DNA of 64,000 nt. It comes from Isurus oxyrinchus. Lineage: Eukaryota. The DNA lies in assembly GCA_026770705.1 (NCBI GenBank), contig JANJGN010000035.1, forward strand, positions 7,564,001 to 7,628,000, read 5' to 3'. The position numbers and the translations under genes are program-made. The notes beneath the pieces were generated by a model. The model had not been told where the DNA came from. It saw only the letters and a list, made by a program, of their open reading frames with translations, and ran no database searches. Positions 15,423-64,000 of the stretch are shown piece by piece; position 1 is the stretch's first letter, and every line of letters begins with the position of its first letter.

Positions 15423-16049
15423 CTAAGGGGCCTGATTGTCCTCAGTAACTACGTGAACAGTTAACATTTCCACAGCCTGATGTGCGGCAATATCTGCAGC
15501 TCGGCCTCCACATAACTCTTTGCCAAGCTCGTAAATAAGCTGATCATACTACATATATGGTTGTTTTGGATTGCAATGGAAACGAAGAGCCCTCAATTTC
15601 TGCAGCAAAGGCACATCAACTGCCTTATCATCATCATTATGTTCATTAAATTTACTTTTCCGTAATTAATTTATAGTTCTCATGTTCAGCTAACTCCCGT
15701 AACACTGTGGGCTAAACAGAACTCAATGCAGACTATATTTTTCATGTAGTTCGAGAGATGTAACAGGGGTAACACATTGCCTCTATCAAGATAATTAACA
15801 GCAAGGGGATTAGAATCTGAGGAGTAAAGATGGCTCATACAGAGGTGATTCCTGAAAGCAATTCTGGACACAATCTTTATGAAAAACCTGGGCAATATTC
15901 GCCAGTACATTTTGTACAATATAGGTCAATAAAAAAAAAAAAACGTCCAATCAAAGTATTTGTTCGGCAAGTGAGCAGTGTGCTTTGGAAAAAAAAGCGG
16001 TACAATAAGTATACTTTTAATTCTGTTACTGACTGGGAAATCCGGTTCA
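15423..16049 (-). pseudogene. Terminal exon encoding a decayed SEFIR/TIR domain
   Basis: After acceptor ttcattcag: VNRISQSVTELKVYLLY...IVQNVLANIAQVFHKDC...YLDRGNVLPLLHLSNYMK...VLRELAEHENYKLIT...DVPLLQKLRALRF..PKQPYM*YDQLIYELGKEL...*. The box order matches SEFIR (RKVFIIYS, VVLKFAQFL..C, F.PV.F, DVP). At least three frameshifts and one in-frame stop. Confidence 0.65.
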
Positions 16050-16249
16050 CTGAATGAAATTGTCTTATCGTATACATTTCAAAGATGTCTGAACGTGTTA
16101 CATTGTCATAGAGATAGAATAATCCTGAAAATTAGTAAAGTTAACCGAGATATGAAAACAAAGTCAAAGCAGAACACCTATTAATTCAGATAGTTCACTG
16201 CCTAGATAATTCAGGACATTTTTTTTTTCCAAACATCAACTGAACTTAA

Positions 16250-16350
16250 TCCTTTTCCCTTGCAATCTGTTTTGATTTATGTTCTGTTTATGATCAAAAT
16301 TACAGTGAGGGTATAGACTAATTCCTAGCACAGTATTATGTTTCGCTTTG
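16250..16350 (-). pseudogene. Transmembrane-like exon of the IL-17R-like pseudogene
   Basis: Acceptor ctgtag. It reads HNTVLGISLY/LTVILII..KGK across a frameshift. The donor appears mutated to ttaagt. Confidence 0.5.
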
Positions 16351-16769
16351 CTACAGATTAAATCGAAGGTTGAAGTAACGATGGCAATATGATAACACGT
16401 TCCATACAAAGCAATAAATGTTGCTGTGAAATAGCAAATTGTAAACAAAAATAACATTCTATTTTAAAATTACCTATTTGGTGCTGTTTTCTGCACAGAT
16501 TGCTGTGTGCACATGAGACTGAAGGTAGTTTTTTAAAAAAATAATCGATTTGGCAATACTGACGTTTAACAAGGGTGCATTCCGTGAACTGCAGAAAGCT
16601 TAACACTGGCTTAAACAAATAAATTGAAATTGACATCAAAACTATAGAACAAAGTAAGAGTTGGCATTTACTGAGGGCAATTATGTTTTTATATACTGGA
16701 GGGGAACTATCGCTGGTAATCAGTGCAGCAGTTCATTGTCCTTCAACAGTTTAGGCCTTCCTTTTAATT

Positions 16770-17070: not shown

Positions 17071-17689
17071 TAAGAAAAACATATTGGAAATAAGCTTAAA
17101 GTCATTGATCAGATATCATATTTTTGCATAAATAAGTAACTATTAGTTTCATGAGGTGGCGCAAAATTGATGATATTCAATCGGCCAGCAGTTGCATTTT
17201 GCGTCTGACACGAATTTAACTGAAAATAATTAAATATTCGTCAACTTGTAGAAAGTGTCGCCGAAAGGACAATACCCGTTTAACGACAGAGCGAGAGACA
17301 AATGTACACCCTTTGTATACATATCCATGTGTTAATGACCTTAAAGAAGGGGGAGAGACGTCGAAGTCACAGCAGAGGCCACAGAGGAAAGCGGGTAATG
17401 TTAGAGTTACAATGCAGCTGAAAGGGGCCGCATTGAGCGAGAGTCGTTGAGATCCAGCTGCGATATCCATTTGAATGATTTTCAGAGCGCACAGTTTGAA
17501 CCCAGTTTAATCGTATGACATCACAGGGAAGCTGGTAGCTTATTGTTGAATGAAGATTTTCTATGCATCTTCTCTGAGCTCCTAAATTTCAGTCGGGTAA
17601 GTGGAACGTATTTTCAATAACAAGATTATAAGCACAAGCAGGAATAGACTCATTTATTAAAGAAAAACTCAATAGTTGCTTCAAACACA

Positions 17690-21809: not shown

Positions 21810-24800
21810 AAAACAGAAGTTTAACAGCACATAAGGAGGCCATTCGGCCAAGCGCATCGGCACCGGATCTCTAAGTGAGCATAATGACCTTGTGCCATTG
21901 TCCTGCCTTTTATCTGTATACCTGCGCATTGTTTATTCACAAGTGAGCAGCAAACAACCTCTTGAATGCAATGATTCGACGTGCTTGAACCACGTTTCCA
22001 AGCATTGAATTCCAGACCAGACTCCTTCGTTGTGTGAAAAAATATGCTTTTCTCACACCACATTTGTTTCTTTTGCAAATCACTTTAAATCTGAACCCTC
22101 TCTCTTTTCATTATTTACGAGCGGCAACAGCTTCACCTTACTGGCTCTGTCCAGATCCCACATCATTTTGAAGATATCTATAAAATCTCATCTAAGTGTT
22201 CTGCTTTCCAAAGAGAACAATCCCAATGTACCCAATCTCTCCCCATAGCCGAAATTTTTCATTGCTGGAAACATGCCTGTAAGCCTCATGTGGACTGTCT
22301 TCAAAATGTTCATGTCTTTCCTCTAAATTGGCGCCCAGGATTGAGCACAATATTCCAGCTAACATCTAACCAGTTCTTTATATAAATGTACGTTAATCTC
22401 CCGTCTCTTGTATGCTATTAGCCAATTAATAAAGCCCAGGGTAGTTAATGCTTTATATGAACATCAGAACTAGGAGCATGAGTAGGCAGTTCAGCCCCTT
22501 AAGCCCGGCCCCCAATTAATTTTGATTATGGTTTATTTCATTTCTGACTCAACTCCAATTTCCAGTCCTCCCCCCATAACCCTTCAACAAATTATTAACT
22601 AAAAACTTGTCTATCTCCTGCTTACATTTATTCAGCGTTCCACGTCCACTACACTCTGTGGTAGTGAATTCGATAGATTTAAGACTATTTGAGAAAAGTA
22701 ATTGTTCCTCATCTCTGATTTAAATCTACCACCTTATAGCTTAAATATATGGCCTCTTGTTCTAGAATGCCCCAGAAGGGCATCCACCCCACATTTCCTT
22801 TGTCGATCTCGTTAATCATCTTGTATACCTCAAATATATCTCCCCTCATGTTTTTAAATTCGCGTGAATATAGGCCTAAACTGCTCAATGTCTCCACATA
22901 AGACAAGCCCCGCATTCTATTGAATCAATCAAATGAACCTCCTCTGATCAGCCTCCAATATGACTCCATCCCTACTCAGGTAAGAGGGCCAAAACTGTGT
23001 GGAGTACTCCTGGTGCGGTCTCGCCAATGCCTTGTACAGTTGTAACAACAATTCCCTATTTTCATACTCAATTCATTTAGCAATAAATGCCAAAATTCCA
23101 TTTGCCTTCCTTATTATCTGCAGTATCTGCATCTTAACTTTCTGCGAATCATGCATGAGGACAACGATATACCTCTGCTCTGAAGTGTTCTGAAGTTTTC
23201 TCTCCATTTAAATTATCAGTCAACTTTTTATTCTTCCGACCAAAATGAATAATGTTACACTTATCAAAGTTAATCTCCATCTGCCAAATTTTTGCCCCTT
23301 CACCCAACTGCCCATGTCCATTCGCAGATTTCTTATTTCTTCATTGCAATTTGCTTTCCCACCCAATTTGGTTCCATCTGCAAACTTAGCTTCAGCTCCT
23401 TCTCGCCCTGAATCCAATTCGTTAACATAGATTGGAAAAAGTTGGAGCCCAAAGGTCAAGCTCTATGTCACCCCACTTGGCACCGCTTGACATCCCGAAA
23501 AAATCCCATTCATTTCGCCTTTCTGCTTTCTGGTGGTTAGCCAAATCCTCTGTGTAAATTATCTAAATTAAAATTATTGCAAGAATTTTTTATGAACATT
23601 ATTTTATGAATGTGTTTATGAACTGCTCTCTCAACCAGTCCGGCAAACTTCAATGATCTGCACAATTATACAGCGATGTATTTTTGCTCCTCTACCCTCT
23701 TGAAATGTTACCTTTTATTTTACTTTGCCATTCCATGTTCCACCTAACACAAAGCAGCACATCACGCTTATCTGCATTGACCTTAATCTGCCAAGTACCT
23801 GCCCACTCCACCACTTGTCTATATTGTTTGGAAGCTCAATTCTGTCACGAAAAGCTATGGATGCAATATCAAATCCTGCAGAACTCCACAAATAACCTTC
23901 CTCCAACACGGAAAATATCTATTGACCATTACACTTTGCTTCCTATTTTTCTGCTAAAGTCCCTTCTATTCCATGAGCAATAATTATTCTCACATTTTGT
24001 TGCATGGCACTGTAGCAAGCGCCTTTTGAAGATCCATTTGCACCTCTCTAAGTCCATTATCCTCATCGATTTTTTCAGCTACGTCTTCAAAACCTCGGGT
24101 ATGCTAGTTAAATAACAGTTTCCCTTTTGAGTTCCATGCTGGCACTTCCTAAGCAACCCATATTATTCCAAAATCACAAATGACTGTTTCAAGAAATCTT
24201 GTCCAAGACAGAAGTTAAACTCGTTGGCCTTTAATTGCTTGGCTTAACCTAGCATACATCTTTAAGCAAGGATTAGTGTTTGCAGTTCTCCAGTCCTTTG
24301 GCAACTCCACTGAGTCAAAGGAAGATTGAAAGATTATGGCCAGTGCCCGTGCAAATACCAATCTCAGATCACCCTATATTGTTGTTTGCAACACACCCGG
24401 TCCTGCTACATGGTTAGTCTATTCAGCATTTCCTCCTTAACGATTTGGAATCCTTCTGATGACATAGTTTCCACGTCTGGCACCATGGCGTGGTGAGAAT
24501 GTAACCCCTTGTTAAAGACAATTGCATAGTGCTCATTTGATGCTGCAGTCATCGTTCGTTTGTGCATGTGCAAATGTTGTTTTTGATCCCTAATTGGCCC
24601 CACTCCTCCTTTTCACAACTTATTACTGTTTAAATGCCTACAGAAGATTATGTTGGCTCCATCTCATAATCCCTCTTCGTCTCTGTATTCTATGTTTCCA
24701 TGTCTGCACTGAACCTTCTGTATCGCTGCTGGTTCTTAATCCTATTTTCTATCTGACATCGTTATAAGTGCACCTTTCATTCCTGACCTGAAAAAGAACA

Positions 24801-26400: not shown

Positions 26401-28074
26401 ACTCATCAATGCTGCCCTGTCTCCAGTCGCTTCATATTTAGTTCTGATGCAATGATTTTTTATATGTGGACTGATGCATGTCTGCAGCCAACTGAAATGG
26501 CAATTTTGTCCACTGTCTCAGAGCAGCTTTACCCCACACACTTAGGCGTGAAGAACATTGAAAATGCATACTTATCACGATAATCCCAAGCTTTCAGAAA
26601 GAGCAATGTGGCATACATTGACCTCACAATGGTTGGCTTTCTATTATTAATCCTGATCGTATGTCGTACTGTTTTGGCAGGGAAATGCTGTCTTCTCTAT
26701 GTTTTTACTTCAAATATCTGCATCTGAACGGTAATGAAACAAATATTATCAGGCACCTGGCGAACTGACAATGGCTGCCTTCTAATTCATGTATCAGCGC
26801 CTCCATGCAAAGTGATTTAGCTGCTTGGGTCTTAGTTGCCTTTTCCCACTCTATCCTGAATTATCCCTGAATTATATAGCCAGCAGACATTTCCATTTGC
26901 CTACGGTGCAGCTATTCCACAATTAAGATTCAACAATGTTCGTCAATAGTGTGGTAGGGGGCGGTGGATGTGGTGGTTGTTCTCATGAAGATGACCCAAA
27001 TGCTTATATAAGCCATATACATGAAATCAAGAAATTATTAATTCAGAGCAATTGGGAGAAAGTTAGAGAAGTAATTAAAAATAATCAGTAAAACGATCAA
27101 AGCCACTGATACTTGCTGAGAATGCCAAATGATAACTTGTTTTACTGCTCATAATCAACATTTTGTATTGTGAAAACAAGAGAACGAACATCTGGTCCAA
27201 ACGTCATAGATTCTCTCAAAACGTTTTTTTTTACTTATTAACAAGAAGAAGAACACACTTAAGCTGAAAACATTAAGCTATATACTTAAAACAGCCTTAG
27301 CATAAATTATCATGCCCCCACCTCTGCAATCACTTCCCCAGGCTCCAGCGTCACCCGACTCTCCACCCCCACTCCCAGTCCCCCCCCAAAAAAAACAAAC
27401 ACTTGGTGAGAACACAGAATTAAACTACCTGTTAAACTGGCTGAAAACACCTCCCTCACAGGTTATTAGCCATGAAAATCGTTTAGTATTACTGAAGGCA
27501 AAATGACTAACTTTACAACAAGGTATATCACACGACATCTGAATCTCTTCAACTCTCCAGTTGGCATCGATAAGAGTTTAGACATAAAGCTGTATGAAAA
27601 CCAATATGTGTTTTGGCTTGAACATGGGTGGATGCATGAAATGCACACATTTTGCTCGTCGAGTGCATATGTCAGGCTGCTTCCAAAAACAGTCATACAA
27701 CTCAGCTCATCGTCTTTCATTAAATATGTTTACCCCGACAAGTTAGATTCAAATATACCAAACACGTCTTTGAAGTTAAATTTCCCGGAGTGAAAAAATA
27801 TTTAATGCCACTTCGGGCAAAATAAAATTTACTAAACATCTTTTTTTCACTTTTAAAGAATTTGTATTTTCTAAAATTCCCTTCCAAAATCAAAAAGCTG
27901 TACAATCAATTCACTTCCTGTCGGGTTATGCTCAGTGTTTATAAAACAACGTTTTTTCCAGTAAATCCACTGCACCAGAACCTCTAATGTATAATGCATA
28001 CAACTAACACCTTTACCTGCATTCCTCAAACCAGCTGTCATAACTAACCATCCACTAGTTAGTTAATTATGGGT

Positions 28075-28088
28075 GCACACACGTGCGT

Positions 28089-28124
<36 letters not shown>

Positions 28125-28136
28125 ACACACACACAT
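28075..28136. repeat. (CA)n microsatellite
   Basis: Direct CA run. Confidence 0.97.
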
Positions 28137-28145
28137 AACCCTACT

Positions 28146-28525
28146 TCCAGATTATTACCAGAGTCCCCAAGAAATTAAAAAGTAACGTCCATTTGAACTG
28201 AAATGTCATATTGCAAAAGTATGTTTTTATTTTCACAAACATATTTTGCATCAATTACACATGGCTGGAGAAGGGAATGTCACTGCAAAAATGCTTACCT
28301 CCACAGAACACATCAATCGATGGTGTACCTGCAGGAAGCATGAAAAAAAATGTTTTTTTTTAAGAATAAATTTCATTCTAGTCTATTTGCAATTTTCCAG
28401 CTTGCCAACTGTTTTCAATATAAAATGTTGACAGCACGTCTGCACTGACATTCCCTTGTCCAGCCACATGTATAATTTCTAAATTGAACGTTTGCAGTAG
28501 TACACTACACTGGAGCAATCTGGAT
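28146..28525. mobile_element. MITE-like element with long imperfect inverted repeats
   Basis: 28253-28296 (aattacacatggctggagaagggaatgtcactgcaaaaatgctt) is the near reverse complement of 28432-28478. A weaker outer pairing exists (ccagatt..ccag). Confidence 0.7.
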
Positions 28526-28579
28526 TTTTAATTTCAATTTTTTTCCAGAAAGTTCAAAGATGATGGTTAGCAGATAGAA

Positions 28580-29080
28580 CTGTCCCTGAAGGGTAATTTG
28601 CAACACATAAAATTGAAAAGGCTTCAATTCTCGAAACATAGTATAGTTGCTTAATTATTTCTTCTGATGCACATTCAACTTCTGTGAGAACAACACCACC
28701 CCCCCACCCCCACCCCCCACCCTCCACCACCACCGCCACCACCACAACTGTTTCCTCTTGTCCAAGTTCATTTTCTCGTAACAATTTAGCACAATAATCA
28801 CTGGCATCAACAACCATCTTAACCTATGTTCTATAATCAGTTGCTGCTAGAACAGGTGTAGTAATTAGTACATCTTTCAAGATTTCAGATGCAGTCTGAC
28901 ACGGACATGTCCATTACAACTTCCACTTCTTTTTCTGTAACACAGTCAGAGATGTAGCTACACTGCTGAAAATTGGCATGAACCTCCAATGAAATCCACT
29001 CATTACCAGAAATCTGAAAGCTTCTCGTTCCCTTGTAGGCACTGGTATAAATTGTTGGAGAGTACCAATCTAACAGTGAA
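28580..29080 (-). mobile_element. Gypsy pol fragment (RT-RNase H linker)
   Basis: MPIFSSVATSLTVLQKK..WTCPCQTASEILKDVLITTPVLAATDY..VKMVVDASD. Confidence 0.85.
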
Positions 29081-29099
29081 TCAGCAGATGAAACGAAAT

Positions 29100-30980
29100 G
29101 TTATAAAGAGAAGGAAAGGATAAAACAAACAAACAAAAAAAAAAACCTGGATCCGAATGCACGTAGCATCTGACACAGAACAGATGAATTTAAAGTGTAC
29201 ATAGAAATAACTAATTGTGATCGGATAGCCATTACGGAAACATGTTTTCAAAAGGAGATGGGTTGGGACCTCAATATTGATCAGCATACGGTATTTAGGA
29301 AGCAAAGGAAGCGAAGAAATGGTGGAGATGTGGCTGTACTAATTAAAGATAATATTAGCACAATAGAGAGGGGTGATCGAAGTTCAGGAAAAGAGGATTT
29401 GGCAAAGGTTTTGGAAGAGATGATAAAAGTTAAAGGCAGGAACTTACTTATAGGAAAATTGTCCTTGCCCCCTAACAGGAACGAAATGGTAGGGTTGTGC
29501 ATAAAGGAAGCACTAATATGAGGTTGTCAGAAAAGGCACGCTGGTAATCATGGGAGATTTTAATTTACATATCGAAGATAAAAGTCAGATGAGCAAAGAT
29601 AGTCCAGATGAGGAGCTCATTGTTGTTTTCCTGGATAGTTTAACCGAACTGAAAGTTTTGGAGCCGACAACTGAGCAGGTTTTATTAGGCCTGTTATTGT
29701 GGAAAGAAGTCTGAATATTTAATGATCGCACAGTGAAAGCGCCCCTATGTAGCAGTGACCATAATATGAATTAATTTAATTTGCAGTTTGAGGGAGAAAG
29801 AGGTGGGCCTGAAATTACATTTTAAATATGTAAAAAGTAATACTATGAGGGCATGAAAGCTGTGCTGGTGAAAACAAATTGACAATACAGGTTAACAGAT
29901 AGCTGAATAGAGATGCAGTGTTTGATACTTAAGGGGAGATATCAGAATTCAAAGTGTAGGTGCATTCGACTGAGTAAGAACATATGCAACGGCAGGACAC
30001 AGCATCCGTGATAACTTGAAAGGTTAAATATCGTGCCAAATTTAAGGAAAACGCATACGAGTTTAGAAATATACGTGGAAGACCATAAGATTGGACAGAA
30101 CATAAGGAACAGCAAAGAGTAACAGAGAGACTAATAAAGGAGGGGGATATTGGAATATGGGAGAAAGCTAGGCAGAAAAAAAAGATGGTAAGTAAGAATA
30201 TTGGTAAATATTTTAAAAAGAAACAAGCGATCAAAGTGAGCGTTGGTGCTGTAGAAGGTCAGTTTAGAAAATTGGTCAAAGAAAACAAGGAGGTCGTAGA
30301 TGAATTGAACAGATGTTTTGCATCAGCTTTCACGATAGAAGATATTAGTAACAGTGCAGCTCCAGGTAAAAAAAAAAAACTGTAAACGGAACTGGGGAAG
30401 GCAGCCAGGAAGATTACAGCTAGAAAAGCATTGGAACTGAGCAAATTTTTCGTGCTGCCAACTGTCAAAGACCCGGGTACTGACGGACTTAATCATGCGT
30501 TTTAAAAGAAATGTGTAGCGAGATAGTTGATGCATCGGTTTTATTTTTCCAAAACACATTAGATTGGGGGAAGTTTGCTTTAAATTCGATGATAACAACA
30601 GTTACTCCATTTGTCAAAATGAGCGGGAGGCAGAAAGTAGCATTTTACAGTCCAGTTACCTTCACAAATGTCTTTGGTAACATATCAAAAGTCACTGACA
30701 AATAAGTAATAGTAGGGCTCTTGGATAAGCTCAAGCTAATCAGGCCGGGTCAGCAAGCTGTTGGACTGGGGATCTGTGTTTTTCCAACGTATTGGAATTC
30801 GTTGTGGAAGTAACATGTGCTTTGGATAAAGTGGAACCGATAGATGCAAGTATGTGATAGGTTATTGGCGGTAGTTGGGAAGCAGATACCACTTTACAAT
30901 TAGATCAGCCATGATAATCTTAAATGGCGGAGTGGGCATGAGGCCAAATCTTGCTCATTGATCATATGTTGGTCTGTTAA
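29100..30980 (+). mobile_element. CR1 ORF2 (APE endonuclease to RT start) plus 3' tail fragment
   Basis: IAITETCF...VFRK.R..RNGGDVAVLIK, VIMGDFN, PLCSSDHN and EVVDELNRCFASAFT. Confidence 0.9.
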
Positions 30981-31049
30981 GCCATTAAACACAGCCCAGC
31001 GAATGTATGAGCTTTTAGGACGATGCTGACATAAATGTTGAGAGGACGA

Positions 31050-31570: not shown

Positions 31571-31999
31571 CAAGAATTACTACAATGAGGATAACTGGGA
31601 GCTTGATGCCCCCTCTGATAGAAGAAATAAAGAACGTAATGACATTGGCATTTTTTGTAGAAAGCCCTTAGGGAACGTCGCAATAGCTCATAGGGTATGT
31701 GCAATTGAGCTACAGGGTGCTCAAATGGAGGCTTGTTTCACTACCACCTTAAAAAAGGAATCCATGCACTTCAATAAATCTTCAGCACATTGCTCTTTAG
31801 CATGTCGTAAATGACCAACACACTAACAGTGAGAACATAAGCTTGCTCTGATCAGATGCTGCAGTTTCGAGCACTGGAAGAGACAATTTAAAAATAATAG
31901 CTTGGTCTTGGATGAGATGCATTCCATGTTCACCTTGTTCTTAAAGTTTAATTTTAAATCAGATATTTAAGAGGAAAGGTATGTAATCCATGGATAAAT

Positions 32000-40194: not shown

Positions 40195-40249
<55 letters not shown>

Positions 40250-45780: not shown

Positions 45781-45871
45781 CTGGAATAAAAATCAATAAG
45801 TTTCATGTTTGTCCAATAGTAATTGGGTTCCATACATTTTCTTCTTATGACATGCATTTTTTAAACATTAC

Positions 45872-47190: not shown

Positions 47191-47199
47191 CTGAGGCTT

Positions 47200-50800: not shown

Positions 50801-51013
50801 GATGGGAATATTTCACCTTTGAATATGTTAAGATTTAAAATATATATGTATCTGTACTATGAACTATTCCAGCAATTGATGCTTTAAGCGTTACTATTTG
50901 ATTCATCTTTAATGATGATCACTGTCTATTCTGAATGGCAGGCAATGTGCTCCTTCTAAAGCTACCCTCTTGATACTAATTTTTTCACAATCTTCCTCCA
51001 TATATCATTCCCT
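47832..51013 (-). pseudogene. PDZ domain split over two exons (51013-50895 and 48077-47832)
   Basis: ISIKRVALEGAHCLPFRIDS, then IVTVQK../EGKDLVL*V..IP......VELLNLIRKTTAEIN. The acceptor of the second exon is mutated (tctac). Confidence 0.55.
48500..50640 (-). mobile_element. Harbinger/PIF DNA transposon with decayed HARBI1-type transposase
   Basis: ORF 49437-49868 reads IKRKGYHSLNVRLICDH...RCPG; PGNSHDC in another frame; DKGYP at ~49170-49185; GC-rich ends. Confidence 0.85.
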
Positions 51014-51156
51014 CTAATAGCCATAAGATATTTGTCTCCAAATATCACTCATAGCATCCATACCCAATTTTGTACGACATAGGGGAGCATCTGTCTCTCC
51101 CTTTCTGCGATCTCACTCATTGTAACCAATGTTCTGTTCATTATCACTCTTCTTAC

Positions 51157-51803
51157 CTCTGTCGTTTTCTGTGAGTTTGCAAACAGTGGCTTACTACTAG
51201 TCTCTTGATTGTGAAAACATTCATAATCTTCTGCCATTATTTCAGCGATCCTTACTTGCTAAATTTACGGTGTTGCACATGAGCCATTTTGTTCGAAGGT
51301 TCTCTATTTCTTCTGGTTCAACATTTTCCTCAGCAACGCCACACTTTTTTTTCAATGCCCAGTCAAAAGCTCAGAGATCGTTGGAACCACGTAAAGCAAT
51401 ACCGTTTTGTTCTCAAATTTAAAGAAATTCTGGTTCTTACCCTCCCTTAAATTTCTGAAATGTTTTCCGCACAACTTTGTCACTAACTCTTCGGAATTCA
51501 GGTCAGCAGATTGGCCCCGATGACAGTCCTTCCACTGAAAGACTTCAATAAAACTCTAATGCATTGACCAGACACACAGACTGAAGTAAAACAGCTTCAC
51601 TTGATGTTGGCTATCACCGATTTTTAGCATCTTTCTTAAATGACACAACGCCCATGCAAAATCATTCGTGGCAGAGCATGGTCAAGAATTGAATAATAAT
51701 TCAGAAGATTGAAAGCTGGAATCGTCATCAATATGTACATCCACGCCGATATTAGGTAATCTAAGCGTATTTCTGACCAATTCAAATGACATTGCTTCTG
51801 CGC
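51157..51803 (-). pseudogene. RGS-like domain exons (51803-51441 and ~51390-51157)
   Basis: A 363-nt phase1-1 exon with only two stops: AMSFELV...FYFSLCVW...LNSEELVTKLCGKHF. The next exon reads ..QVRIAEIMAEDYECF (cf. RGS Q..I..LME.DSY.RF). Donors are gtaaga. Confidence 0.55.
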
Positions 51804-52324
51804 CTGCACAGAATTGTTCGATTCTCAATTCTGCAGTATCCCTGCAATTGGATACGTACTGTCGGGCCGACGTCGGGCATGTTGATGTTGGGCAGCTTTA
51901 CCGACGAGATTGTGGCGGTTTTGCACAGTACTGCAGGCTGATGGGCTGAAAAATCAGAAAACTTCAGCATAATGTAACTAACTTGGGATGCTTAGGATAG
52001 GGTTTTATGGCCCACGTCAGAGTACCTCAATGCAGTGGTTTGCTTTTTACAACGTTAGCGTAAGAAATCTGGTAGGTCAGCCCAACACCTACCCATCAAC
52101 CCTCAGCTGACCCTCATGATCTTGTGGCGGAAAAAGAGTCCTTCGTACACCTGTTCATAAGCCGTTTGAGTCGGTAATGTAGTCCACCTGAGTGTATGGT
52201 TATCCCTTTGCCGAAAGAACACATACGATTGGGGGCTGAGGGTGGGGGGGGAGTTGGGTTGTGTGGTAGGCCGCTGGCCAACGCACAACCTTAGCAGCTG
52301 AACTGAAAGGCATGAATGAAGTAC

Positions 52325-54535
52325 CGCAATATTTGGTTGTGGACATCTTAGGTCTTCCGCAAGCATGACCCACAACTTTCTTTCACTTGGCAAAATATGC
52401 GATCCTGCTCACATGCCAAACTTTCCATCCTTGGCCAGCTGCAATGTTCCACTGAAGTCCAATGCAAAATGCAGGAACAATACCTCACATTCTCATAATG
52501 CACTATGCAGCCTTCCCAGCTTAAAACGGATTGCAACAACTTCAGTTCATGAACAATCTCCTCTGTCTTCAAACTTTTTAAATATTTTTATTTGTTTTAA
52601 TATTTTGTGCAATTAGTTAGTTTTATTCATTAAATCATTGCATTCTCTTTTAAAATTAGTTTTTTCCTTTTTGCCTTAAAAACGCTCCACCACCCACAAC
52701 CACAGCAACACCACCCGCCCACATCTACTGCCAACAACCCGCGAGAACAGTGGCATCTGCCAATTGTTTTATCTTCTCTTGAAGAAATTGCTGACCCTTG
52801 TTCTACAATTAACACTTTCTAACTTCTCAAACTTATGCTACTATCAAAATCTACTTTAGAATTCGCCACTGCAGGTGACAATTTATTTGTTTTATGCGGT
52901 ACATCTATGTTAGTCTCTCCTCCACCCCCACCTATAGATGATGTTCTACCCTGCTTTACCTATTCCAACACCAAAAACAGCCCCCGCCCCGCAACAAGCC
53001 ACCCCCACACCCATCCACGTGCAACAGTACTAATTCCATCTTATTTTTTTTTTAGCTCGGAAATCTCATCACAAACGAAAGTATCGATTTGTGAAATCTC
53101 GCCTTTTCCAAGCATGGACGGTGAAACCTCTGTTAAAGGAGGATATCCAGGGGAAATGTTCGATCGTGAATTGATGACCGTTACCAGTGATACGATGAAA
53201 TTTTGGAACAGATCGTGTGTCCTCTAAATGTTTTGATCACCTGTAAACTAAGCCAGGATGCCCTCAGTTCCTTCATCGAGGTCATTAATGTCTAAAGTAA
53301 AAGGTTGTGATCCCAACTCTGACACATGCTGAACTCCACTAGTCATCGGCCGCAATCCTGAGAAGGACCCCTTATCCCCACTCTCTGCCTCCTGCCAGTG
53401 GATTAATCTTCTATCCATGCTAATACCTTGCCATTAACACCATGGGCTCTTATCTTACTGAGCAGCCTCCTGTTCTTGTCAAAGGCCTCCTGAAAGTGCA
53501 AATGCATAACATCCATTGACTCTCCTTTGTGTAACATATTTGTTAAATCCTCAAAGAATTCTAACAGATTTGCCAGTCATGACTTGTCCTTGATGAAACC
53601 ATGATGATTCTGGCCAAATTTACAATGAACTTCCAAGTATTTGAAATCTCATCCTTAATAATGGACTCGAAAATCTTACCAACGACCAACATCAGTCTAA
53701 TCAGCCTGTAATTTCCTGTCTTTTGCCTCAATCCCTACTTAACCAGGGGGGTCACATTAGCGATTCTCCAGTCCTCGGGGACCCTCCCTGGCTCCAGTGA
53801 TTCCGGAAAAATCACCACTAATGCATCCACTATCTCTTCAGTTAGCTCCTTCAGAACAGTTCGAGCTTGTGCGTATGAGCCTGTGAATATGTGCATGTGA
53901 ATGTTTGTGCTTGTGTCTGTGCCTTGTGAGCGCATTGTTTCACAGAGCATGCACATTGTCTCAGGAGTGTACGGAGTTTCAAAATAGTCGATATTCCGTG
54001 AAATGTTCCCGCAATATAGCAAGGTGTCAGAGCAATTTCAGCATCATTTCCTGGGTCATAATCCTGTCAGGTTAGGTTAGGTTTTCACATTGTGCCTGTC
54101 TCATGCAAAGTTTGTATAGGGTTTAACAAAATATTCTTGGCAACAAGGGCACATTTATTTTTTGTTGTGCTTTGGTTTTAAAATTGGTCTATGGCATTCA
54201 AAAAATCATAGGCAGTATTTGAAAATGCATGTTAACTGGAATAGAAAGTGAAAAATTCCATGTTGCTCTCTCCTTGATCAGAGTGGCCTGGTTGGACAAA
54301 ATGTTGCCGGAAAAGTGTCCCCAAATAAAAGGAACAGACTAGCAACAACATTTTAATTGGCCCCTAATCTTATGACAAAGTTGTAGTGTGATAGCAGAGA
54401 TTAGGGCGATCCTCGCCTGCAATGCAAACACAAATAAAGCCATTTTGCACTTTGTTGTAATAGTTACCGGAAATCTTCAAGTCTAGCTCGCTGATATCTC
54501 TGTAACATGCTCTCTCTGAGAAAGGAAAACCCTTG
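52325..54535 (-). pseudogene. Second FERM domain exons
   Basis: 54535-54468 RVFLSQREHVTEI; from 54416 LQLCHKI/GAN*NVVASLFLLF..RPL; exon from 53223; ~52870 FLQEKIKQLADATVLA; ~52645-52325 LKTEEIVHELKLLQSVLSWEGCIV. Confidence 0.5.
53240..53860 (-). mobile_element. CR1 RT fragment (comparatively well preserved)
   Basis: LKELTEEIVDALVVIFPESLEPGRVPEDWRIANVTPL, with HGFIKDKS..NLLEFFE and SGVQ downstream. Confidence 0.92.
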
Positions 54536-54590
54536 CTAGACAAAAAAGCGAAATAAGCAGCAGCAAAATTTTAAAAAAATATTGTTCAAC

Positions 54591-56722
54591 CTCACAACTA
54601 AACATTGACAGTTTTGGAGGGCCACCTTGTGTCATTAACAATGGTCGACAAGGAATGTGCGGTGACATGAATGAAAATCTATGCACATAACTCTGTATGC
54701 GGGTTTGGTGCAATTGACCTATTTTATGTCACGTGCCTGTGTGTGTGTGTGTCTCTGCTTCTGTGTGTTTGTGTGTAGACGTTTATAAAGGGGTAGAATT
54801 CATGCCATAGAGTTATAATTTCGCAGGTCGTATTTCTTTATTTTAATGCTGCTCGAAGTCATTTTTTTTCTTACGTAGTAAATTACATGTTAGGCTTACA
54901 CACCTGGTGTTCGGAATCTTTTATTATAAGTTACAAATTTAGATGTTTGTAGAGCAATATGGTGGTCTAATTTAAATTTTCATCTTTGCTTCAGATTGGG
55001 GAGCACTGGGGCTGTGAATTACAGCACCTGATTCACAGTGATAATCAATGTAGAGAGCTTTACGATCAACAGGATCTTGACAAAATGCATATGGGGACCA
55101 AAATCCCCTAAATGTAATATAACGTATTGCGGTGCAGAAATGACCTGTCAAGACTTGTCTTCGATTGATGTCGTCAAAGGAAAATTAAAGGCGTATATGG
55201 TACTTCCTGGATTTTCACAAATCTGCCAGGGTATAACATATGTGCTACAAAAAGTGCACAGCACATTATCTCTTGCCATAATCCGGAAAGGCTCACCCAC
55301 TGTCACACCCACCCACAATCTCATGCAATCACGCACATAACTTATATTCCTCTTATTCATATGTCATCCATTCACTGCACTGAATACCTTATGGTCTTCA
55401 AAATGGAGATGGCCTTCAAAAATGATGAAGTATCGGTAGCAGCATTGTAGGCAGCTAATTGATCAGAAAATCAATAGATTGCGTCATATTTAGCAGTGCT
55501 ATCACGTTGGACCTGACAATAGTGGTGTAATATGAAATAGCAAATTGTACAAGGAATCTCAACGAACATCTGCAACCTCCTACATGGCAGGTATCAGCAC
55601 GTTAGTAAAAAAAAAATGTTGCTGCATTCGGGCCTATTTTCTGCTTGATGTATCAAGGGCATGATATAATTCAGCCTCTTATGATACCAGTTTCCACTAG
55701 TTCTGGTTACATATAGCAGGTATCAAGTACTAAAGGAAATCATTTGATATATCAAGTGTCAAGGTTCCAAAAAAAAAGCTTGGGACGTCGAAAAGCTGTC
55801 TCAGTTCAAGGAAACAAGTCATTAACCAACAATGTGGAAAATTTAATAGGCATGATCTTCCGAAGAAGAGCAGAACAAATCCGAATACATCAATTTTCAC
55901 CCGAAATATTGAGCATATGTTATCAACAAAGTCATGAAAATTATCATTAACAATGCATTCAAGCGGACAATCCATTAAATCAGCTGATGTTCTGCCAGGA
56001 CAACTCTACTCCGGACATCATTGTAGACTAGGTCTAACCACTCGCCCAAAGTCCAGGATTACATAGGTAAATTTTGTGTTACTGGCCCTCATACCAAGGC
56101 AGCAATTGACCCAGAGTGTGCCTTCAACTGATTGCTGCGTTGATATTTTTATCTCAATGAGAATCAGAGTAAAAATTTCTTGTGGCTCAAGTCAAGTATA
56201 TTAAAAAGGGGAAGAAAGTTTTTGATTGTTGAATGACAATTATCTCAAGTCCAACATATCACTTCAGTTGTTCTTTCGGGCAGTGCCTTATGCCAACCAT
56301 TATCGGTATACTTTGTCTGCCACCCGTCTTGCCTCTTTATATCAGAGCGAACGGAAGTCGTTTTTTATTGCATCGTGTCCAGTACATCAAAATTAACCCA
56401 AATTGTAAGGAAGCCCATGCATAAATGCACAACAAAAAACAAATTTGCACTTAATTTAGTATTTAAAGTGATGTAATAACATATTTCCACACAAAACAAG
56501 AAAAGTACCATGTGAGTAAAAAATTGAGTCTAAGTAGCGCCTATTGACACTGCAAGGTATTATCATCACCGATTGGTCGGCCATAACTTTTTTGCATATC
56601 ACCAATAAAAATAATCTTAACTGGCAACGTAAAAATATAACTCTGTCTACCGTTCTTCCCCCTATAAAAATAAAGGAAACACTGGTCCGTTCACCCCTTG
56701 ACTCTACAAATTGCGCCAAAGC
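54591..56722 (-). pseudogene. First FERM domain exons (FRMD8/KRIT1-like F1)
   Basis: 56722-56509 VSFIFIGGRTV; ~56400 TIWVNFDVLDT; to 55901 WLDLVYNDVRSRVVL....IVRLNALLM; 55729-55513 YLIP....W....ELYHAL..SS...ARMQ..FFLLTC*YLP...QMF; 55454-55388 plus 55244-55145 KAISILKTIS|TYVIPW; from 54718 RVMCIDFHS. This is the canonical F1-F2-F3 order. Confidence 0.7.
54738..54776. repeat. (TG)n microsatellite, imperfect
   Basis: Direct TG runs. Confidence 0.85.
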
Positions 56723-58444
56723 CTAAATTACACTTTGCTTTGGAATGACATGCTTCCCATGTGGCTGCCTTTCCAAGAACTCTCACGAAAGCTGTTATCA
56801 TTAAGTGACGAGAATTCCACTTCAACGACACGCCATCTGCAACGTTGAACAACTTCCTACAACCCAGTTGTGCTGTGGCTGTAGTGTGTACCTCAACGGA
56901 ATGTTTGAAACGTGAAAGATGCCGAAATGTGTCGGGGAACTGCTACTTATATATTTAATCCAAAATGGCTTCAGTGTGTATCAGGATTCAGGATTTATTA
57001 TGAATCTACAGGGTCTGGCTGAGTTCAACAGACAATAAGGTCATGAGGACAAAAAGCAATTATATCGCACCATTATCATGATATTTGCATTAACAATCCA
57101 TCTGCAAGCGTTATCAAACACAATTTGCCACTGGTGAACGATAAGAGGCAATAATGGAATCTTAAGGTTTTTTTTCCAGAATGCTGAATACCAGGCCGAA
57201 ATGGTGGAGTGAAGAAAATCGGAAATACTTAAAATGCCCGAATTCTGTGAACAGTGAGATCTCGGGAGGTTTAGGTCTGTAGACGCTCACATCAGTATGA
57301 AGAGACAAGGTTCTATGGGGATTAGAAAAGCATAAGTATTCCAAGTTTATACCTGGCTTAAAACAAGATCCAACGTCTGTTACCGGGCAAAAGGTTGATC
57401 GGGTGATTCGGAGCTCGTGAGGCTATCAAAGACGGCTGCAATTTGCAAAGACTTCACGTTTGTGAATGTTACCTTTAGGTAGTCCTGCCTGGCGTACAAC
57501 AGACAAGTGTCGATTCTATTTGTTATGTCCGACACGTGAATTTTCGAGACAGGGTAGTTGAGGTAAAGGGGCAATCAACATTGTCTTTTCACGTCAAAAT
57601 AAGTGGCCTCAATGGTGATGCGGAAATGTAATACGAAGCTCACACTAAGAAGAATTCCAATAACATGGGGTTCACCAGGAGATCCTTCTTACGTATAGGT
57701 TTGCAGTCGATTGGTGAGGGGAAAAAAAGCTTGCAACGGCATTATAATTCAAAGCCTTCTACCTTGCCAATCGTGATTTATTTGTATCATGCAAACAATC
57801 ATTAACTATACAGCCTGTGTTGATGTTAAACGAGGTAGCATGTGGGATCTGGAGGAATCATAATGCCTTTTTTGTTAATTCACGGTGTATCAGAAGTTAC
57901 TCAGATATTTTTTTTTGTCTATACAATGGATTCAGGTCATGCAACAAGTATATGGGTTATTGACATTTAAAATGGCGAGGCCACTTATGCAATAAATATC
58001 TATGTCTTAACAGGTTTTGAAAAACACCACTTCTTAAAACTTTAGCCAAGTTTTCGTTTTATTTCACACTGTGTTAGAATTCTTGCAGATGTTTACCTGG
58101 TGAAAAAGCCTGACAAGTTACAGGCTGATGTGTGTAAGTTTCGTCTTGTGTTAGGAGTTTCCCACGTTTGTATATGTTGGAACAATCCCTCACAGCCAGT
58201 TGAACTCCAACTTAACAGTGTTGCTTTTGTGTCAATTTTGAATAAGTTTGTCATGTGCATCGTTATCTAATGCCTTTTGATCACACGAATATACAACACG
58301 TACATGATTGCATCCAATAACCGTTAGAATTCACCATAAGCTTTTCCTAGAGCAAAAGCCATCAGCACCACACCAATGAAAAGGAACCACCAGGGCACAA
58401 TACAATTTTAATGAAATTTCACTGTAGCAAAACTGCTTAAATTA

Positions 58445-59645
58445 GCCTATGCTGTTGACGAGGTGTACATCGAATTTGGAAAGGCTTTCAATACAGTGCC
58501 ACACAAAATACTTTTGAGAAAAGTTATAGCTCATGTAACAAAAGGGACAAAAGCAGTGTGGATAGAAAATTGTTTGAGCAATAGGAAACAGGGTGTAATG
58601 GTCAACCAATATTTTTCTGGTCGGAGGAAGGTGTGTCTTGAATTTTCCCAAGGATTTGTACTGCGGCCCTTGCTTTTCCTGATTTATATTAATGATCCAA
58701 GCCCTAGATTGTACGTGACAATTTCAACGTTTGCAAAAGAAGCAAAACTTAAACGCATTGTCAAATGTGAGGGAAACAGCCTTGAATGTCAAAATTACCT
58801 ACACAAGTTGTTGGAGTGGGCTGATTTGTGGCAGATGAAGTTTATTGCGGAGAAGCGTGAGGTAATTCAATTTGGTAGGAAGAAAATAGAGAGACAATAT
58901 TAAATAGAGGGTACATGTTTAAAGGTGTATGGGGTTAGAGAAGCCTGGAAGTAAATGTGCATATATTATTGAAGTTGGCAGAACAGGGTGGGGGGGGGGG
59001 GGGGGGAGCACTTAGAAAGAACCCTGGTTGTTAATAATCGGGCATTGAATACAAGGGTAGGGAGGATAACCTGAGTTTATATGGGGCCCATTTAGAAACA
59101 AGTTGGAGAATCATGTATAGTTCTGTGTGCCACGTTATGGAAAAAGTTTTTTTGTATTATATAAATTTCTCAAGAGGTTTCCGGGAATGTCTCCAGGGAT
59201 GAGAAGCTTGAGTAACGAAGAAAGATTGGTGAAACTGGGACTGTTTTGCTAGGAGTGGAGAAGGCCAGTAGGATAATTTATAGCGGTGTTCAAAATCAGG
59301 ATGGAGTTGGAAAGAGGACAAAGGGAGAAGCTTTTCTGTTTGTCAAGCGATCAATAATGAGAGGGCACAGAGTTAAAGTGATTTGCAAAAGAAGAAATGT
59401 GATACAAGAAAAGAAAAACAAAACACTTAGAGTGTGGCTCGAGTCCCGAATTTTCAGACTGGAAGTCTGGTAATGTCAGGTTCAATCGAAACATAAAAGA
59501 AGGCATTAGATGATTATCTGATTAGTTGCAATGCATAATTTTACCGGGGGAAACAGAGAAAATGCTTTAAATTCTATTGCTCGCTTGGAGAGCCGGTGCA
59601 AACACAATTGTCCTTCTGTGTTGTAACATGTCTGTGGCTCTGTGA
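58445..59645 (+). mobile_element. 5'-truncated CR1 LINE (RT to 3' end)
   Basis: ORF 58463-58903 reads YIEFGKAFNTVPHKILL..QGFVLRPLLFLIYIND..WADLWQMKF; the 3' UTR ends in tctgtg repeats. Confidence 0.92.
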
Positions 59646-62440
59646 TTCAAACTTTAAAACAGCTAGAGGGCCTTTCAAATCAAAATGTGCTTTTTAATGT
59701 TTATGGAAGAAAGACATTCCTCACGAAGTTACAGGCAACCGCATTAGCTCATGAACAAAAATGGTGCTACATGAAATCATTGAAACTTGCAATCTGAGAA
59801 TGTAGCATCTTTCACTTCTGAAATGAATCATTACGACCGTGGAATAGCAAACCACGAGCTGAGGCACTCCATCTGATTTCCTCAGTCAGTTTTAGAAGTG
59901 ACAAGGTGCATATGTACAAACACAATCTCTCCTAGGTCATTAGGATCTTGAAGTCAAAAAATCTTCAGCCAACTCCTACTTCAGGACTCTCAAAAGGCCT
60001 GCGCATCTTTTGCAAATCTTAAATAAAAACTTTGCACTTTATCAATCAGCAACTCCCTAATCTTCCTGTCTTCATTGCTACATTGTTCTAACTTCTAACA
60101 AACGGGTGCACACAGACACATAGTGAAGCAGTGTCCGCCCTACTCTCAGAGACCAATATGAACACGAGTATGATTTTGCAAACTGCCAAAGTTAAACTTT
60201 CTCTATTCGGTAAAAAGAAAAAAAAACATTTGTTTGTTCCCTTATTGATGAAATTTTCTCAAAATCAAAGGGTACATAACTGCATTTGATGTTCTTTTTA
60301 ATTTTTGGTTGGCAGCTCTTCACACCCAAGGCAATCCAATGAAACATGGGTATCGTTTGGAAGCTAACAATGTCATGCATAAAAATTTAAAAAAGAGGTA
60401 TTTTCTGTGAGAATACTCACTGGTCCATTTTTTTTCTTGAAGAAACCATCAAACAGAAGTAAAATGCATGCGCCCCATAATACAATTAAAGTTGAGTATC
60501 CCCCGTCTAGAAGAAATAAAACGCCTTACAGAAATAAGCTTTTTTTTCGCAACCCTAACATAATGCAACAGGTTGTAACATTATAAAGAGCTTGACGACT
60601 ATCCCACTATATGCTTAGAGATTAATGATTATATGATTTTTGGCCTAGTTATTACTTTTCAGCTGAGGGAGTTTGATAATGATTTTATTCATTTCAAAAA
60701 TTATCTTAACCACCTCCTTTGCAACTATGTGTCACTGAAATTGAACTTTACGCAATCACTTTTGTTTACATTTGGTCAATTCCACTTTCTGATGTTCTAA
60801 CGTGCTTTCAGGGAATAGTGTTCGTTGCTGCAGCTTTACAACCTAACTTTGGACTCTTCTTTTTGTCTCTCCATTCACAATCAAAACCTATATCTCCTTG
60901 TTTTCATCATTAGTTTTCTAACATCGTTCATGTGCTATGTCTTCATTATTATTTCATACTAGTTAGCACATTTTAAAACTGTCATTCCGCTTTTTGACTG
61001 AGGCTGATGAACTTAGAACTTAAACAATATACACATATCAGGCAGATCTTCTGATACTTTCAGCACTTAGTTAATCAGAATATCAATATCAGAATCACGT
61101 TTATATAAAATCATTATTTAATTTGTTTCAAATCAGTCAACTACACTTGTAAAACTTCACTTTCAGAAGGATTTTCTGACATCACTGCATGATGCAATAA
61201 CTTCTAGACAGCCATCTCATTTCAAATAAGGTACCCAGCCATCCCATAGGTAAATAACGAACACGTCGACAGAAAAAAAGCGCATTAGCCTACCTACATA
61301 TCAAATGAATTTTATAGAATGGACTGTGGAAATAATTCCGAACAAAATTAATCAATACTTAATTATGCACCCTGTTTTTCGTTTATTTATTTGTAGACAA
61401 ATTCATTTGAGTTGCTATCATCAGTGCTGCGTTGATTTATTCTCTCATATAACTAGGAACATAGTTCCTGCCTCACCAAGCAACATTTGTGAGGCTTCTT
61501 CATGAGAAAGAAAACAGTTATAATTCAATCTCCCCAAATAAACTCAATCAGCAAACATAGGAAATCATTTCGGCTTGTCATAGGCTTTCCTTCCCTACTA
61601 TATTTTATTCTCTGAAGGGGCATTCTCAACTGCCAAAACGTCAGAACTGAAGTGCTTTTTATTTTTAATGGCAGAACTATCTATAACCCCCTTCAAATCA
61701 AACTAGTCCAACATACGTTTCACTTGTCTAACCAGAGGAGTGGCTGCGTCCTTAAACATGCTGCGAGTGTCACAAAAACGTTTAGATTCTCTCTGAGTTC
61801 CACGACTGGGGCATTTTTCTAATATGTGTGTGAGTGAGTTCATTATCGACATCTGCAATTTTTGCAGTATTATATATTTACATTCTGTACCTGTATAGTA
61901 CATATATACATGCTTCCAAATGAGAAGTTATTCCCATGGGGTTACATTTTGTTTAACTCTACCACCACAACCAGTTCCCCAATGTTATTAAAGTCTTGTT
62001 CAATATTCAGTGACATTCGCATGCTGCAAATATCTACGTCATTTTGTCTGGCAAATAACGCTAGGATTTTATTGTGTTGCTCCTTCAAATTTGAAAAAAA
62101 TAATGTCAGTAATATTGAGATAGAAAATAATAAGCAATGAGAACAACATTATTGCACGGTCTTAGTAATCTGATTGTTCCTCTAAAAGACGTGTTTACAC
62201 ATTATAACATATTCGCACGGAAATAAAAAAAACTGAAGAAGCGTTTTTTTTTTTCTTATATATTTCCTGGGATGTTTTCATGGTTAGCAAATTGCCCACC
62301 TATAATTAAACTTTGCTAGGTTGGTGGTGCGGTGCTTTCTTAAAACTTGTTCTGATTAAGTAAGTAACATAGGCAGAAGACCTGATGAGGTTAATCATCA
62401 GTTGGGCTGAAGTGATGGAGAACTAAGTAGGCTCCTCATT

Positions 62441-62628
62441 NNNNNNNNNNNNNNNNNNNNNNNNNNNNNNNNNNNNNNNNNNNNNNNNNNNNNNNNNNNN
62501 NNNNNNNNNNNNNNNNNNNNNNNNNNNNNNNNNNNNNNNNNNNNNNNNNNNNNNNNNNNNNNNNNNNNNNNNNNNNNNNNNNNNNNNNNNNNNNNNNNNN
62601 NNNNNNNNNNNNNNNNNNNNNNNNNNNN
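62441..62628. other. Assembly gap (188 N) adjoining a (GA)n/(GATA)n repeat
   Basis: A run of N followed by agagagagag and gatagataga. Confidence 0.99.
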
Positions 62629-64000
62629 ATAGAGAGAGAGAGATAACAGTACAAAAAGAAGTTGGATAGATAGATAGATGTAAATAAGTTGCGAGAGAGA
62701 CATATACCTTTTCCTAGTGTAACAAAAAATAAAGATACATGTCTGAGATGCTTCCTTTTCATCAATCTAATATCTCGATTGAGAATGCTTCAGTGGAGAG
62801 GTACTTTAATGAACTGTCAATACTGCTGTTGCTGATGATTCCTGTTAAACATATTAAAAGTCCCATTCAATCGTTTCTTTCAAAAGATATATGGTAGACA
62901 ATGATCAAAAACGGATAAATCACTCTTGCTGCAATACGTTGTCTTAACAGTTGCGAAACCTCAGCGAATGCAACGGCCATTTCGTATGCAATTCATTGTG
63001 ATCTACTCAGTTGATGAACTTCAAACGATAGCTCACATGCCCTAAACATAGGTTAGCTATTTGTCCATTTAGAGTTGATTTCAGACCCAATATAGCCGAA
63101 GCAACGAGCACGTAATTTCCCTTCCTAAGGCAGTTACAATCGTAGGCAGTTACAATCGTGGCACGCACTTCAAACAGAATGCATTTCACTCTCAAGGGCT
63201 CAAAGTCCGTTGGGAAAACTTAGCATCTAGTCCATTTCCATTTCCAAAAAAGCTAATCCATCATGCAAAATCTCACTTCCAGAAAAAACAATATTGATAA
63301 TTTGGCTGTTTTTTTTTTGCCTCTCAGGTCATCTTTAGTGGTATGAACGAGCTGCAAACAAGGATCTGCCAGGAATTTTAAATTGAAATTTTCCTTACTG
63401 TATCCAGTAGAGCTAAATGGCCAGTGGATGGACAAGGTGCGGATTGTTCTGAACTGGATGAATACACACTGGAGGTTTTTCTTGGTCTGTTATGCTGTGG
63501 AAAGAATACTATCAAATTAATCATGATAGAGTTGGAGGTGGCGATAGGATTGTAAATACCAGTCGATTCATTGGCAACAGAGCCGAAATTGCTTCCTCTT
63601 GTAACACAAAAAATGCTTCAATAGGGTCTGATGCTCTGATTTAAAATAACCTTAACCATAGGATCGCGAGTTGAAGTGGTTATGAGGCTGATGACCCTGA
63701 TTTTAAAAGTTTCAAAAACCAGCAAGATCTTGCTACCTTTTTTAAAAAAAATTGCCAGTACCATGAGCAACGTGGAAGGTCAAAGTGCAATGAAATGCAC
63801 AAAGGCCCATTAGATATCTAAGGCACAGCCCTTGTCCATGGAGACTATATGTCTGCAAGGGTTAACTTGACACTGGCTCATGTGTTCAAGCACACGAGAT
63901 TGCAATCCAGGAAAAATAAAATGCACCCGACGTCAAAACCCACGAGAAAAAGTTAGAGACCTGTGACATGACTTGAATGCAAGCTCTTTGAAGCTGTAAT

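Follow-up and report, generated by a model that had tools for sequence, protein, structure and literature searches.

A dead NLR gene between two candidate pseudogenes in a 64,000-nucleotide stretch of the Isurus oxyrinchus genome

We analysed a stretch of 64,000 nucleotides from Isurus oxyrinchus (assembly GCA_026770705.1, contig JANJGN010000035.1, positions 7,564,001 to 7,628,000 of the forward strand), here called the window, to whose first letter all positions below refer. A preliminary description of this DNA had proposed three neighbouring genes that were dead to a similar degree. No description of the locus was found in the literature searches. The NLR gene, which lies on the plus strand at 35572-45090, proved to be a dead, intron-containing (non-processed) pseudogene. 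It stands between two candidate loci on the minus strand, one of which resembles a gene for an IL-17 receptor (IL-17R-like, 27785 to 15423) while the other has candidate PDZ-, FERM- and RGS-like parts (PDZ/FERM/RGS-like, 63596 to 45291).

A search with the open stretch at 35715-36368 returned one relative among 760 candidates, the basking-shark protein XP_078390055.1 (741 amino acids, 72% identity). This protein is a NACHT-LRR-PYD-containing protein 3-like (NLRP3-like) and is intact, and it was used as the reference for tblastn and a frameshift-aware alignment. Four exons were found to be colinear with it, in which 675 codons are aligned at about 75% identity. The largest exon (35572-37244) holds the NACHT, winged-helix and HD2 regions and has 418 of its 556 aligned codons identical to the reference. 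The two LRR exons that follow (39018-39103 and 40462-40651) are identical at 26 of 31 and 44 of 62 codons respectively, and the last exon (45005-45090) at 22 of 26. The three introns between them are kept and measure about 1.8, 1.4 and 4.4 kb.

In-frame stops were observed at 35642, 35714, 36364 and 36421, all within the large exon, where five frameshifts are also located (36343, 36653, 36688, 36875 and 37176). The frameshift at 36875 coincides with the loss of about 14 codons, and those at 36653 and 36688 fall within base runs. One further frameshift is found in each of the LRR exons (39038 and 40493). The splice sites are damaged as well. LRR exon 1 has a TT donor at 39104, exactly at the exon end, the acceptor of the large exon reads TG instead of AG at 35570-35571 with its GT donor at 37245 intact, and LRR exon 2 has an intact donor and a damaged 5' junction at about 40460-40465. 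Near 45085 the terminal stop lies out of register. Three of these lesions, namely the TG acceptor, the damaged junction and the displaced stop, had not been reported in the preliminary description. In all, the copy in the window is set apart from XP_078390055.1, which may be its orthologue or a paralogue, by 4 stops, no fewer than 7 frameshifts and 3 lesions at splice sites or junctions, and also by the unmatched residues 1-47 of the reference.

The NACHT domain of the pseudogene is recognised by Pfam with an E-value of 2.7e-17 (63.6 bits against a cutoff of 26.7) and a motif scan located a Walker A-like motif at 35862. The matches to NOD2_WH (E 1.3e-4) and NLRC4_HD2 (E 0.0075) are both under the curated cutoffs, and the three 3' exons align to the LRR region of the reference. 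Residues 1-47 of XP_078390055.1 found no match in 28000-36200, where the best scores were 26-32; the 5' end of the gene may have been lost, may be unrecognisable in its present form or may be mispredicted in the basking-shark protein. No N-terminal effector domain (PYD or CARD) is among the five of the ten Pfam families of XP_078390055.1 that were listed.

A total of 165 of the 675 aligned codons differ between the two copies, where 147 differ by one base change, 17 by two and 1 by three. Among these differences are 161 missense changes, whose BLOSUM62 scores average -0.48, compared with -0.35 to -0.38 under simulated neutral mutation. Identity varies little along the protein, with 73-78% in each of its five regions. 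Judged from these substitutions, the amino-acid changes look unselected, as neutral decay would leave them, and not like assembly error. It is extremely improbable that the three genes are intact and their lesions are consensus errors of the assembly. Some of the frameshifts do lie in base runs (36653 and 36688, and the T runs near 15940-15990 in the IL-17R-like locus) and the window contains a gap of 188 N, but polishing errors do not account for 4 nonsense changes, 161 missense changes of neutral spectrum, the loss of about 14 codons or the exchanged splice dinucleotides. For the NLR gene consensus error is excluded because of the 161 neutral-spectrum missense and 4 nonsense substitutions.

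The NACHT profile scores 111 bits in XP_078390055.1 and 64 in the window, and this fall means that the copy in the window took much of the damage. Fully neutral divergence would be expected to give 8.5-10.2 stops, more than the four observed (P=0.025-0.075), which suggests that part of the divergence arose under a still-protected reading frame. From the stops alone, the neutral distance since the death of the gene is about 0.05 (0.012-0.14).

The IL-17R-like locus was laid out as five candidate exons with boundaries chosen by eye. The candidate last exon (15423-16123) ends with TAG at 15423-15425 and has a motif match at 16017. By its motifs it would be SEFIR-like; it has no Pfam, PDB or homologue match. 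Several frameshifts were observed in its T runs, which are found near 15940-15990, and at least 4 breaks are needed to read through it compared with 7.7 in shuffled sequence (P=0.022). No SEFIR match was returned by Pfam in any of the three read-through frames or by the PDB search for one frame, the frames being fragmented, and a word-indexed homologue search with the SEFIR-like tail gave 0 matches from 21 candidates. Next to it lies a candidate transmembrane exon (16250-16360), which was chosen by eye and has an uncertain 5' boundary and the donor TTAAGT at 16249. The candidate extracellular exon at 17277-17581 overlaps a 73-codon open stretch (17370-17588), has a motif match at 17357 and is presumably a second FnIII-like domain; it has no PDB match. 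A short extracellular exon at 26622-26722, with AG/GT flanks by eye, is a weak candidate. The most upstream candidate extracellular exon (27472-27785) has a CGG acceptor at 27785-27787, an uncertain 3' boundary and no Atlas match. On the same strand, a PDB-sequence search with 27469-27729 showed weak similarity to modules of complement factor H (E 0.018), which is probably due to chance, and a CCP-like instead of an FnIII-like exon is conceivable here.

None of the 108 stop-free pieces from the minus strand of 15.3-28.2 kb matched a relevant Pfam family, and the candidate FnIII-like domains and transmembrane helix, in a layout drawn by eye, had no IL-17R match in Pfam, Atlas or the PDB. The layout itself, in which candidate extracellular exons and a hydrophobic exon are followed by a long last exon that starts with a SEFIR-like strand motif, is similar to that of the IL-17 receptor family (IL17RA/RB/RD type). 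Unlike members of this family, the locus has no Pfam or PDB sequence match, and its exons are fewer and larger than those of mammalian IL17RA. The identity of an IL-17R-like gene is plausible, for a candidate whose label no database supports.

The PDZ/FERM/RGS-like locus was laid out as thirteen candidate exons, again with boundaries chosen by eye. At its 5' end there are four candidate 5' or PDZ-like exons (63558-63596, 63399-63494, 62300-62381 and 61946-62090), the last with a CAA acceptor at 62091; neither Pfam nor the PDB supports a PDZ domain in 61946-63596. A gap of 188 N at 62441-62628, beside a CT/AT microsatellite, lies within a candidate intron of this region and could conceal an exon. 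Five candidate FERM-like exons follow at 59838-60202, 57383-57645, 55513-55729, about 54418-54530 and 51779-51945, with short FERM-like motifs at 57448, 55729 and 51847, and no support for a FERM domain was found in Pfam, the PDB or Atlas. The single-sequence fold of 57383-57646 has a predicted local distance difference test score (pLDDT) of 46.4 and gave nothing usable (best Z 4.9, root-mean-square deviation (rmsd) 3.1, 74 residues aligned). A FERM chain of SNX17 came up for this segment at Foldseek rank 23 with E 4.5 and was given no weight.

Two candidate RGS-like exons are located at 47968-48077 and 47580-47742, with short RGS-like motifs at 48049 and 47630 and no Pfam match. The former has a TAC acceptor at 48078 and a GC donor. 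The latter has no donor, and it is abutted by a plus-strand, presumably CR1-like LINE (long interspersed nuclear element) fragment at 47190-47575 that is truncated at both ends and matches a repeat at 22260-22361 by tblastx (E 4e-4). That the fragment runs straight into the exon suggests that a deletion took out the donor.

A candidate 186-nucleotide exon at 45872-46057 has clean AG/GT ends and one open frame but no Pfam match, and the candidate last exon (45291-45780) has an AG acceptor and contains a frame at 45366-45689 that is amphipathic and resembles a helical bundle. This frame matches a designed coiled coil among PDB sequences (E 8.5e-5), and its single-sequence fold is all-helix (pLDDT 63.5) with generic bundle matches only (best Z 8.9, rmsd 2.4, 72 residues aligned). 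Neither of the two single-sequence folds excludes any family. No natural homologue of the helical tail was found among 542 candidates in a word-indexed search. A phmmer search of 1.84 billion representative sequences with a single frame of 45291-46250 also gave 0 matches, where the probable intron at 45781-45871 leaves the query only partly in frame. None of 124 stop-free pieces from the minus strand of 44.5-63.8 kb matched a relevant Pfam family, and a stop-free piece from this locus matched only bacterial clusters in Atlas at 0.77-0.81, which is chance level. The PDZ/FERM/RGS identity is likewise plausible, for a candidate that no database supports under this label. About 200 bp separate the last exon of the NLR gene (45005-45090) from the candidate last exon, and hence the presumed 3' end, of this locus (45291-45780). 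The two genes are thus arranged tail to tail, and their 3' untranslated regions would have overlapped.

The gene labels of the preliminary description therefore hold for the NLR gene, on the NACHT match and XP_078390055.1, and find no database support at the two flanking loci. Its statement that introns are retained is confirmed for the NLR gene by the reference alignment; for the flanking loci, where introns were recognised by eye only, it is plausible that they are non-processed pseudogenes. All five of the splice defects it listed are present as written (TT at 39104, TT at 16249, CGG at 27785, TAC at 48078 and CAA at 62091). The first alone is anchored by homology. The other four were selected by eye as close to the splice consensus, and sites of this kind are common in AT-rich DNA.

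We consider it unlikely that the NLR gene is the sole real pseudogene and that one or both of the flanking genes are patterns in intronic or repeat DNA, which would leave no block of dead genes at all. This explanation gains from the database searches, since neither flanking locus has Pfam, PDB-sequence, Atlas or homologue support. Stop-read-through frames of the candidate exons at both loci matched no relevant Pfam family, and of seven PDB-sequence searches five were empty while the other two gave the designed coiled coil and the weak factor H match. In addition, the PDZ/FERM/RGS-like exons do not exceed background in openness (P=0.33, and P=0.18 in an earlier exon set). It has to contend with the FERM-like and RGS-like motifs, which like those of the IL-17R-like locus lie on one strand (minus) and in domain order. 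The patterns were written after the sequence had been seen and are a lead and not a test. Two of the FERM/RGS motifs occur once each in the window, compared with 0.15-0.17 times per shuffled window, and two other patterns are frequent by chance, with 1.6 and 9 matches per shuffled window, the higher figure being that of the RGS pattern at 47630. Most of the candidate exons also have AG/GT-like ends and pyrimidine tracts (by eye), openness at the IL-17R-like exons is above background (P=0.018), and the frame at 45366-45689 is amphipathic, all of which argue against chance patterns.

The degree of decay was compared with a reference-free measure, the smallest number of stops plus frameshifts encountered when an exon set is read from end to end. 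The NLR gene requires 6 breaks in 2027 nucleotides, or 0.89 per 100 codons, compared with 16.8 events in background. The IL-17R-like locus requires 7 in 1527 nucleotides (1.38 per 100 codons; background 12.0, P=0.018, a value subject to selection bias) and the PDZ/FERM/RGS-like locus 16 in 2440 nucleotides (1.97 per 100 codons; background 17.9, P=0.33). Non-exon background has 2.2-2.5 breaks per 100 codons. The choice of exons by eye can bias these counts in either direction. The exon set was revised after the first result, where one exon was split at a probable intron, boundaries were moved and two exons were added to the IL-17R-like locus; the earlier set gave 6, 5 and 20 breaks for the NLR, IL-17R-like and PDZ/FERM/RGS-like loci respectively (the last with 12 exons, compared with 23.2 in background, P=0.18).

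When lesions were simulated at the NLR rate, the IL-17R-like count was observed to fit (7 compared with 5.9 +/- 2.4, P=0.39), whereas the thirteen PDZ/FERM/RGS-like exons had 16 breaks compared with 8.5 +/- 3.1 (P=0.021) and fit twice the rate (P=0.35). A similar degree of decay, as the preliminary description had it, therefore fits the IL-17R-like and NLR genes and is doubtful for the third locus, which looks to have about twice the load, a difference that shrinks to P=0.28 as exons are left out. The three loci agree to about a factor of two, and the data lean towards an older PDZ/FERM/RGS-like locus.

The window as a whole has a GC content of about 40%, and its repeats are CA/CT microsatellites and decayed LINE fragments. 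A repeat scan found only microsatellites and short arrays (15 entries) and no satellite arrays in the window. A reverse transcriptase was recognised at 58415-58900 (Pfam E 7e-8). Old LINE fragments lie at 58415-59600, 21860-24600, 6800-7800, 11100-13100 and 29170-30400, with 60-70% mutual identity where they match, and no young, near-identical repeats were found within the window; repeat coverage from self-tblastx was too noisy for use. A 125-codon open stretch on the minus strand at 6423-6797, which by its motifs resembles a decayed Gypsy-type integrase, had no Pfam match at E 0.01. No gene was detected in 1-15400, where stop-free pieces of at least 55 amino acids had no convincing Pfam family. 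The scan that included them took 135 stop-free pieces on both strands, from 1-15.4 kb and from 28-35.6 kb, and gave no relevant family. The only exception in the Pfam scans of stop-free pieces was a weak LINE endonuclease match. Rfam gave 0 matches across the window, and no internal duplicate of the three genes is present in it.

The gene for XP_078390055.1 sits on a basking-shark sequence of 12,244,460 bp. In Table 3 of the assembly report, chromosome 35 measures 12.24 Mb and the X chromosome 19.44 Mb (PMC13044535). The sequence is therefore tentatively assigned to chromosome 35, an autosome, an assignment by size agreement alone for one gene in another species; the X was ruled out by its size. 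A position of the block on a Y or neo-Y chromosome that does not recombine, as a gametologue or as a moved autosomal segment that decayed with the Y, is accordingly improbable. Shark Y chromosomes are described as highly decayed, with many segments of autosomal origin (PMC11406177), and neo-Y chromosomes derived from autosome fusions are described for Myliobatiform rays (10.1101/2025.02.26.637739), both of which would be compatible with Y linkage. Against it, the nearest intact NLR gene is placed by size on an autosome and not on the X, and the bamboo-shark Y, which also carries autosomal segments, consists of about 51% satellite DNA (PMC11406177) while the window has no satellite arrays. The neo-Y example comes from rays, whereas 75% identity to a lamniform protein points to a shark. 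The shark X is furthermore characterised as an ancient conserved chromosome (10.1101/2025.02.26.637739), which makes an X-Y gametologue unlikely; a transposed segment is conceivable. The terms IL17R, FRMPD, FERM, NACHT and NLRP had 0 matches in two supplementary files of PMC11406177. With the intact NLR gene placed on an autosome and no satellite arrays in the window, the sex-chromosome reading that had been offered earlier is weakened.

The other earlier proposal, a segmental duplicate of an autosomal region, holds that all three genes were redundant or broken at copying, decayed jointly and have an intact copy elsewhere. We regard it as possible, with clearly less than an even chance. It would account for NLR replacements that are neutral-like and uniform over the domains, for the agreement of the IL-17R-like and NLR loads and for the unmatched residues 1-47, as a truncated copy might show, although this region may be fast-evolving or mispredicted. 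The same proposal predicts intact relatives at about 75% identity for all three genes, and none was found for the flanking pieces, basking-shark RefSeq proteins being among those searched. The apparently greater decay of the PDZ/FERM/RGS-like locus (P=0.021 with all 13 exons) and the deficit of NLR stops (4 compared with 8.5-10.2), which places part of the divergence under constraint, are also not what joint death at copying predicts. Coordinated decay is thus conjectural, as the third locus looks about twice as decayed as the NLR gene and no intact relative was found for the flanking loci, where the NLR gene has one at 75%.

The explanation we favour, and to which we give about an even chance, is a staggered loss in place of three dispensable neighbours on a small autosome of a shark. 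Each gene would have become dispensable in the birth-and-death turnover of immune and signalling genes, at which point purifying selection would have lifted, leaving base changes, small indels and inserted LINEs to pile up. Shark NLRs are described as having undergone lineage-specific expansion with birth-and-death turnover (PMC8455134), and small shark chromosomes as having a higher gene density and higher synonymous rates (PMC10620051). The PDZ/FERM/RGS-like gene was probably the first to die, as its roughly twofold load, the LINE fragment joined to its exon and the lack of any intact relative found suggest. The NLR gene would have been the last to go, at about or after the time when its lineage parted from the one in which the gene is still intact. 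Such a history requires no single event, and the block would have no present protein-coding function. The graded decay of the three loci and the finding of an intact relative for the NLR gene only (1 match, with 0 for the flanking pieces) count in favour of this explanation.

Several observations weigh against staggered loss. Three unrelated adjacent genes that are all dead are less expected if each was lost independently, and the IL-17R-like load fits that of the NLR gene (P=0.39), as a shared death date predicts. The flat, neutral-like divergence of the NLR gene is also expected of a copy dead from birth. The excess at the PDZ/FERM/RGS-like locus falls to P=0.081 without the exon at 59838-60202 and to P=0.28 without the last exon too, and with exon boundaries chosen by eye any non-coding DNA included would mimic extra decay. 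Finally, the empty searches for flanking genes are weak evidence; their queries were short, single-frame and of limited reach, and the NLR search itself gave one relative.

Compared with known systems, the block resembles non-processed pseudogenes of the unitary or duplicated kind in its kept introns, neutral-like substitutions, stops, frameshifts, decayed splice sites and LINE insertions, and differs from them in that three unrelated genes adjoin. Degenerated shark Y chromosomes are similar in their decayed sequence and because autosomal segments can land there. They differ in being satellite-rich and nearly gene-free (PMC11406177; 10.1101/2025.03.13.642935), while the intact relative of the window's NLR gene is placed on an autosome.

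FRMPD1, FRMPD3 and FRMPD4 are PDZ-FERM scaffolds, and RGS3 and RGS12 are PDZ-bearing RGS proteins. The third locus resembles these proteins in its PDZ-then-FERM motifs and helical C-terminus, where the domain calls are candidates, and differs from them by a candidate RGS-like segment after the FERM-like part. We know of no vertebrate protein with both FERM and RGS domains, and a literature search for the two in one protein returned, by title, only papers on RGS12 and sorting nexins. On the strength of these motifs, 45291-63596 could, as a speculative and somewhat doubtful reading, be the fossil of an undescribed vertebrate scaffold whose single chain combined PDZ, FERM and RGS domains with a helical bundle at the C-terminus. 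Such a protein might have been a membrane adaptor that ended G-alpha signalling at PDZ-bound receptors. Its gene might have belonged, together with an NLR and a divergent IL-17 receptor gene, to an ancient immune-signalling neighbourhood of a shark microchromosome, and other cartilaginous fishes may still have intact, unannotated copies.

Non-processed pseudogenes are already known to occur in clusters, and a dead NLR gene is nothing unusual given the fast turnover of the family. If the block were Y-linked, from which the evidence leans away, it would represent a dated autosome-to-Y transposition. If the PDZ-FERM-RGS reading is true, the third locus would be the fossil of a domain architecture of which this analysis found no intact example, and would point to a lost or unannotated vertebrate gene family. 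Intact orthologues would date the three adjacent losses and thereby indicate whether blocks on shark microchromosomes die jointly or piecemeal.

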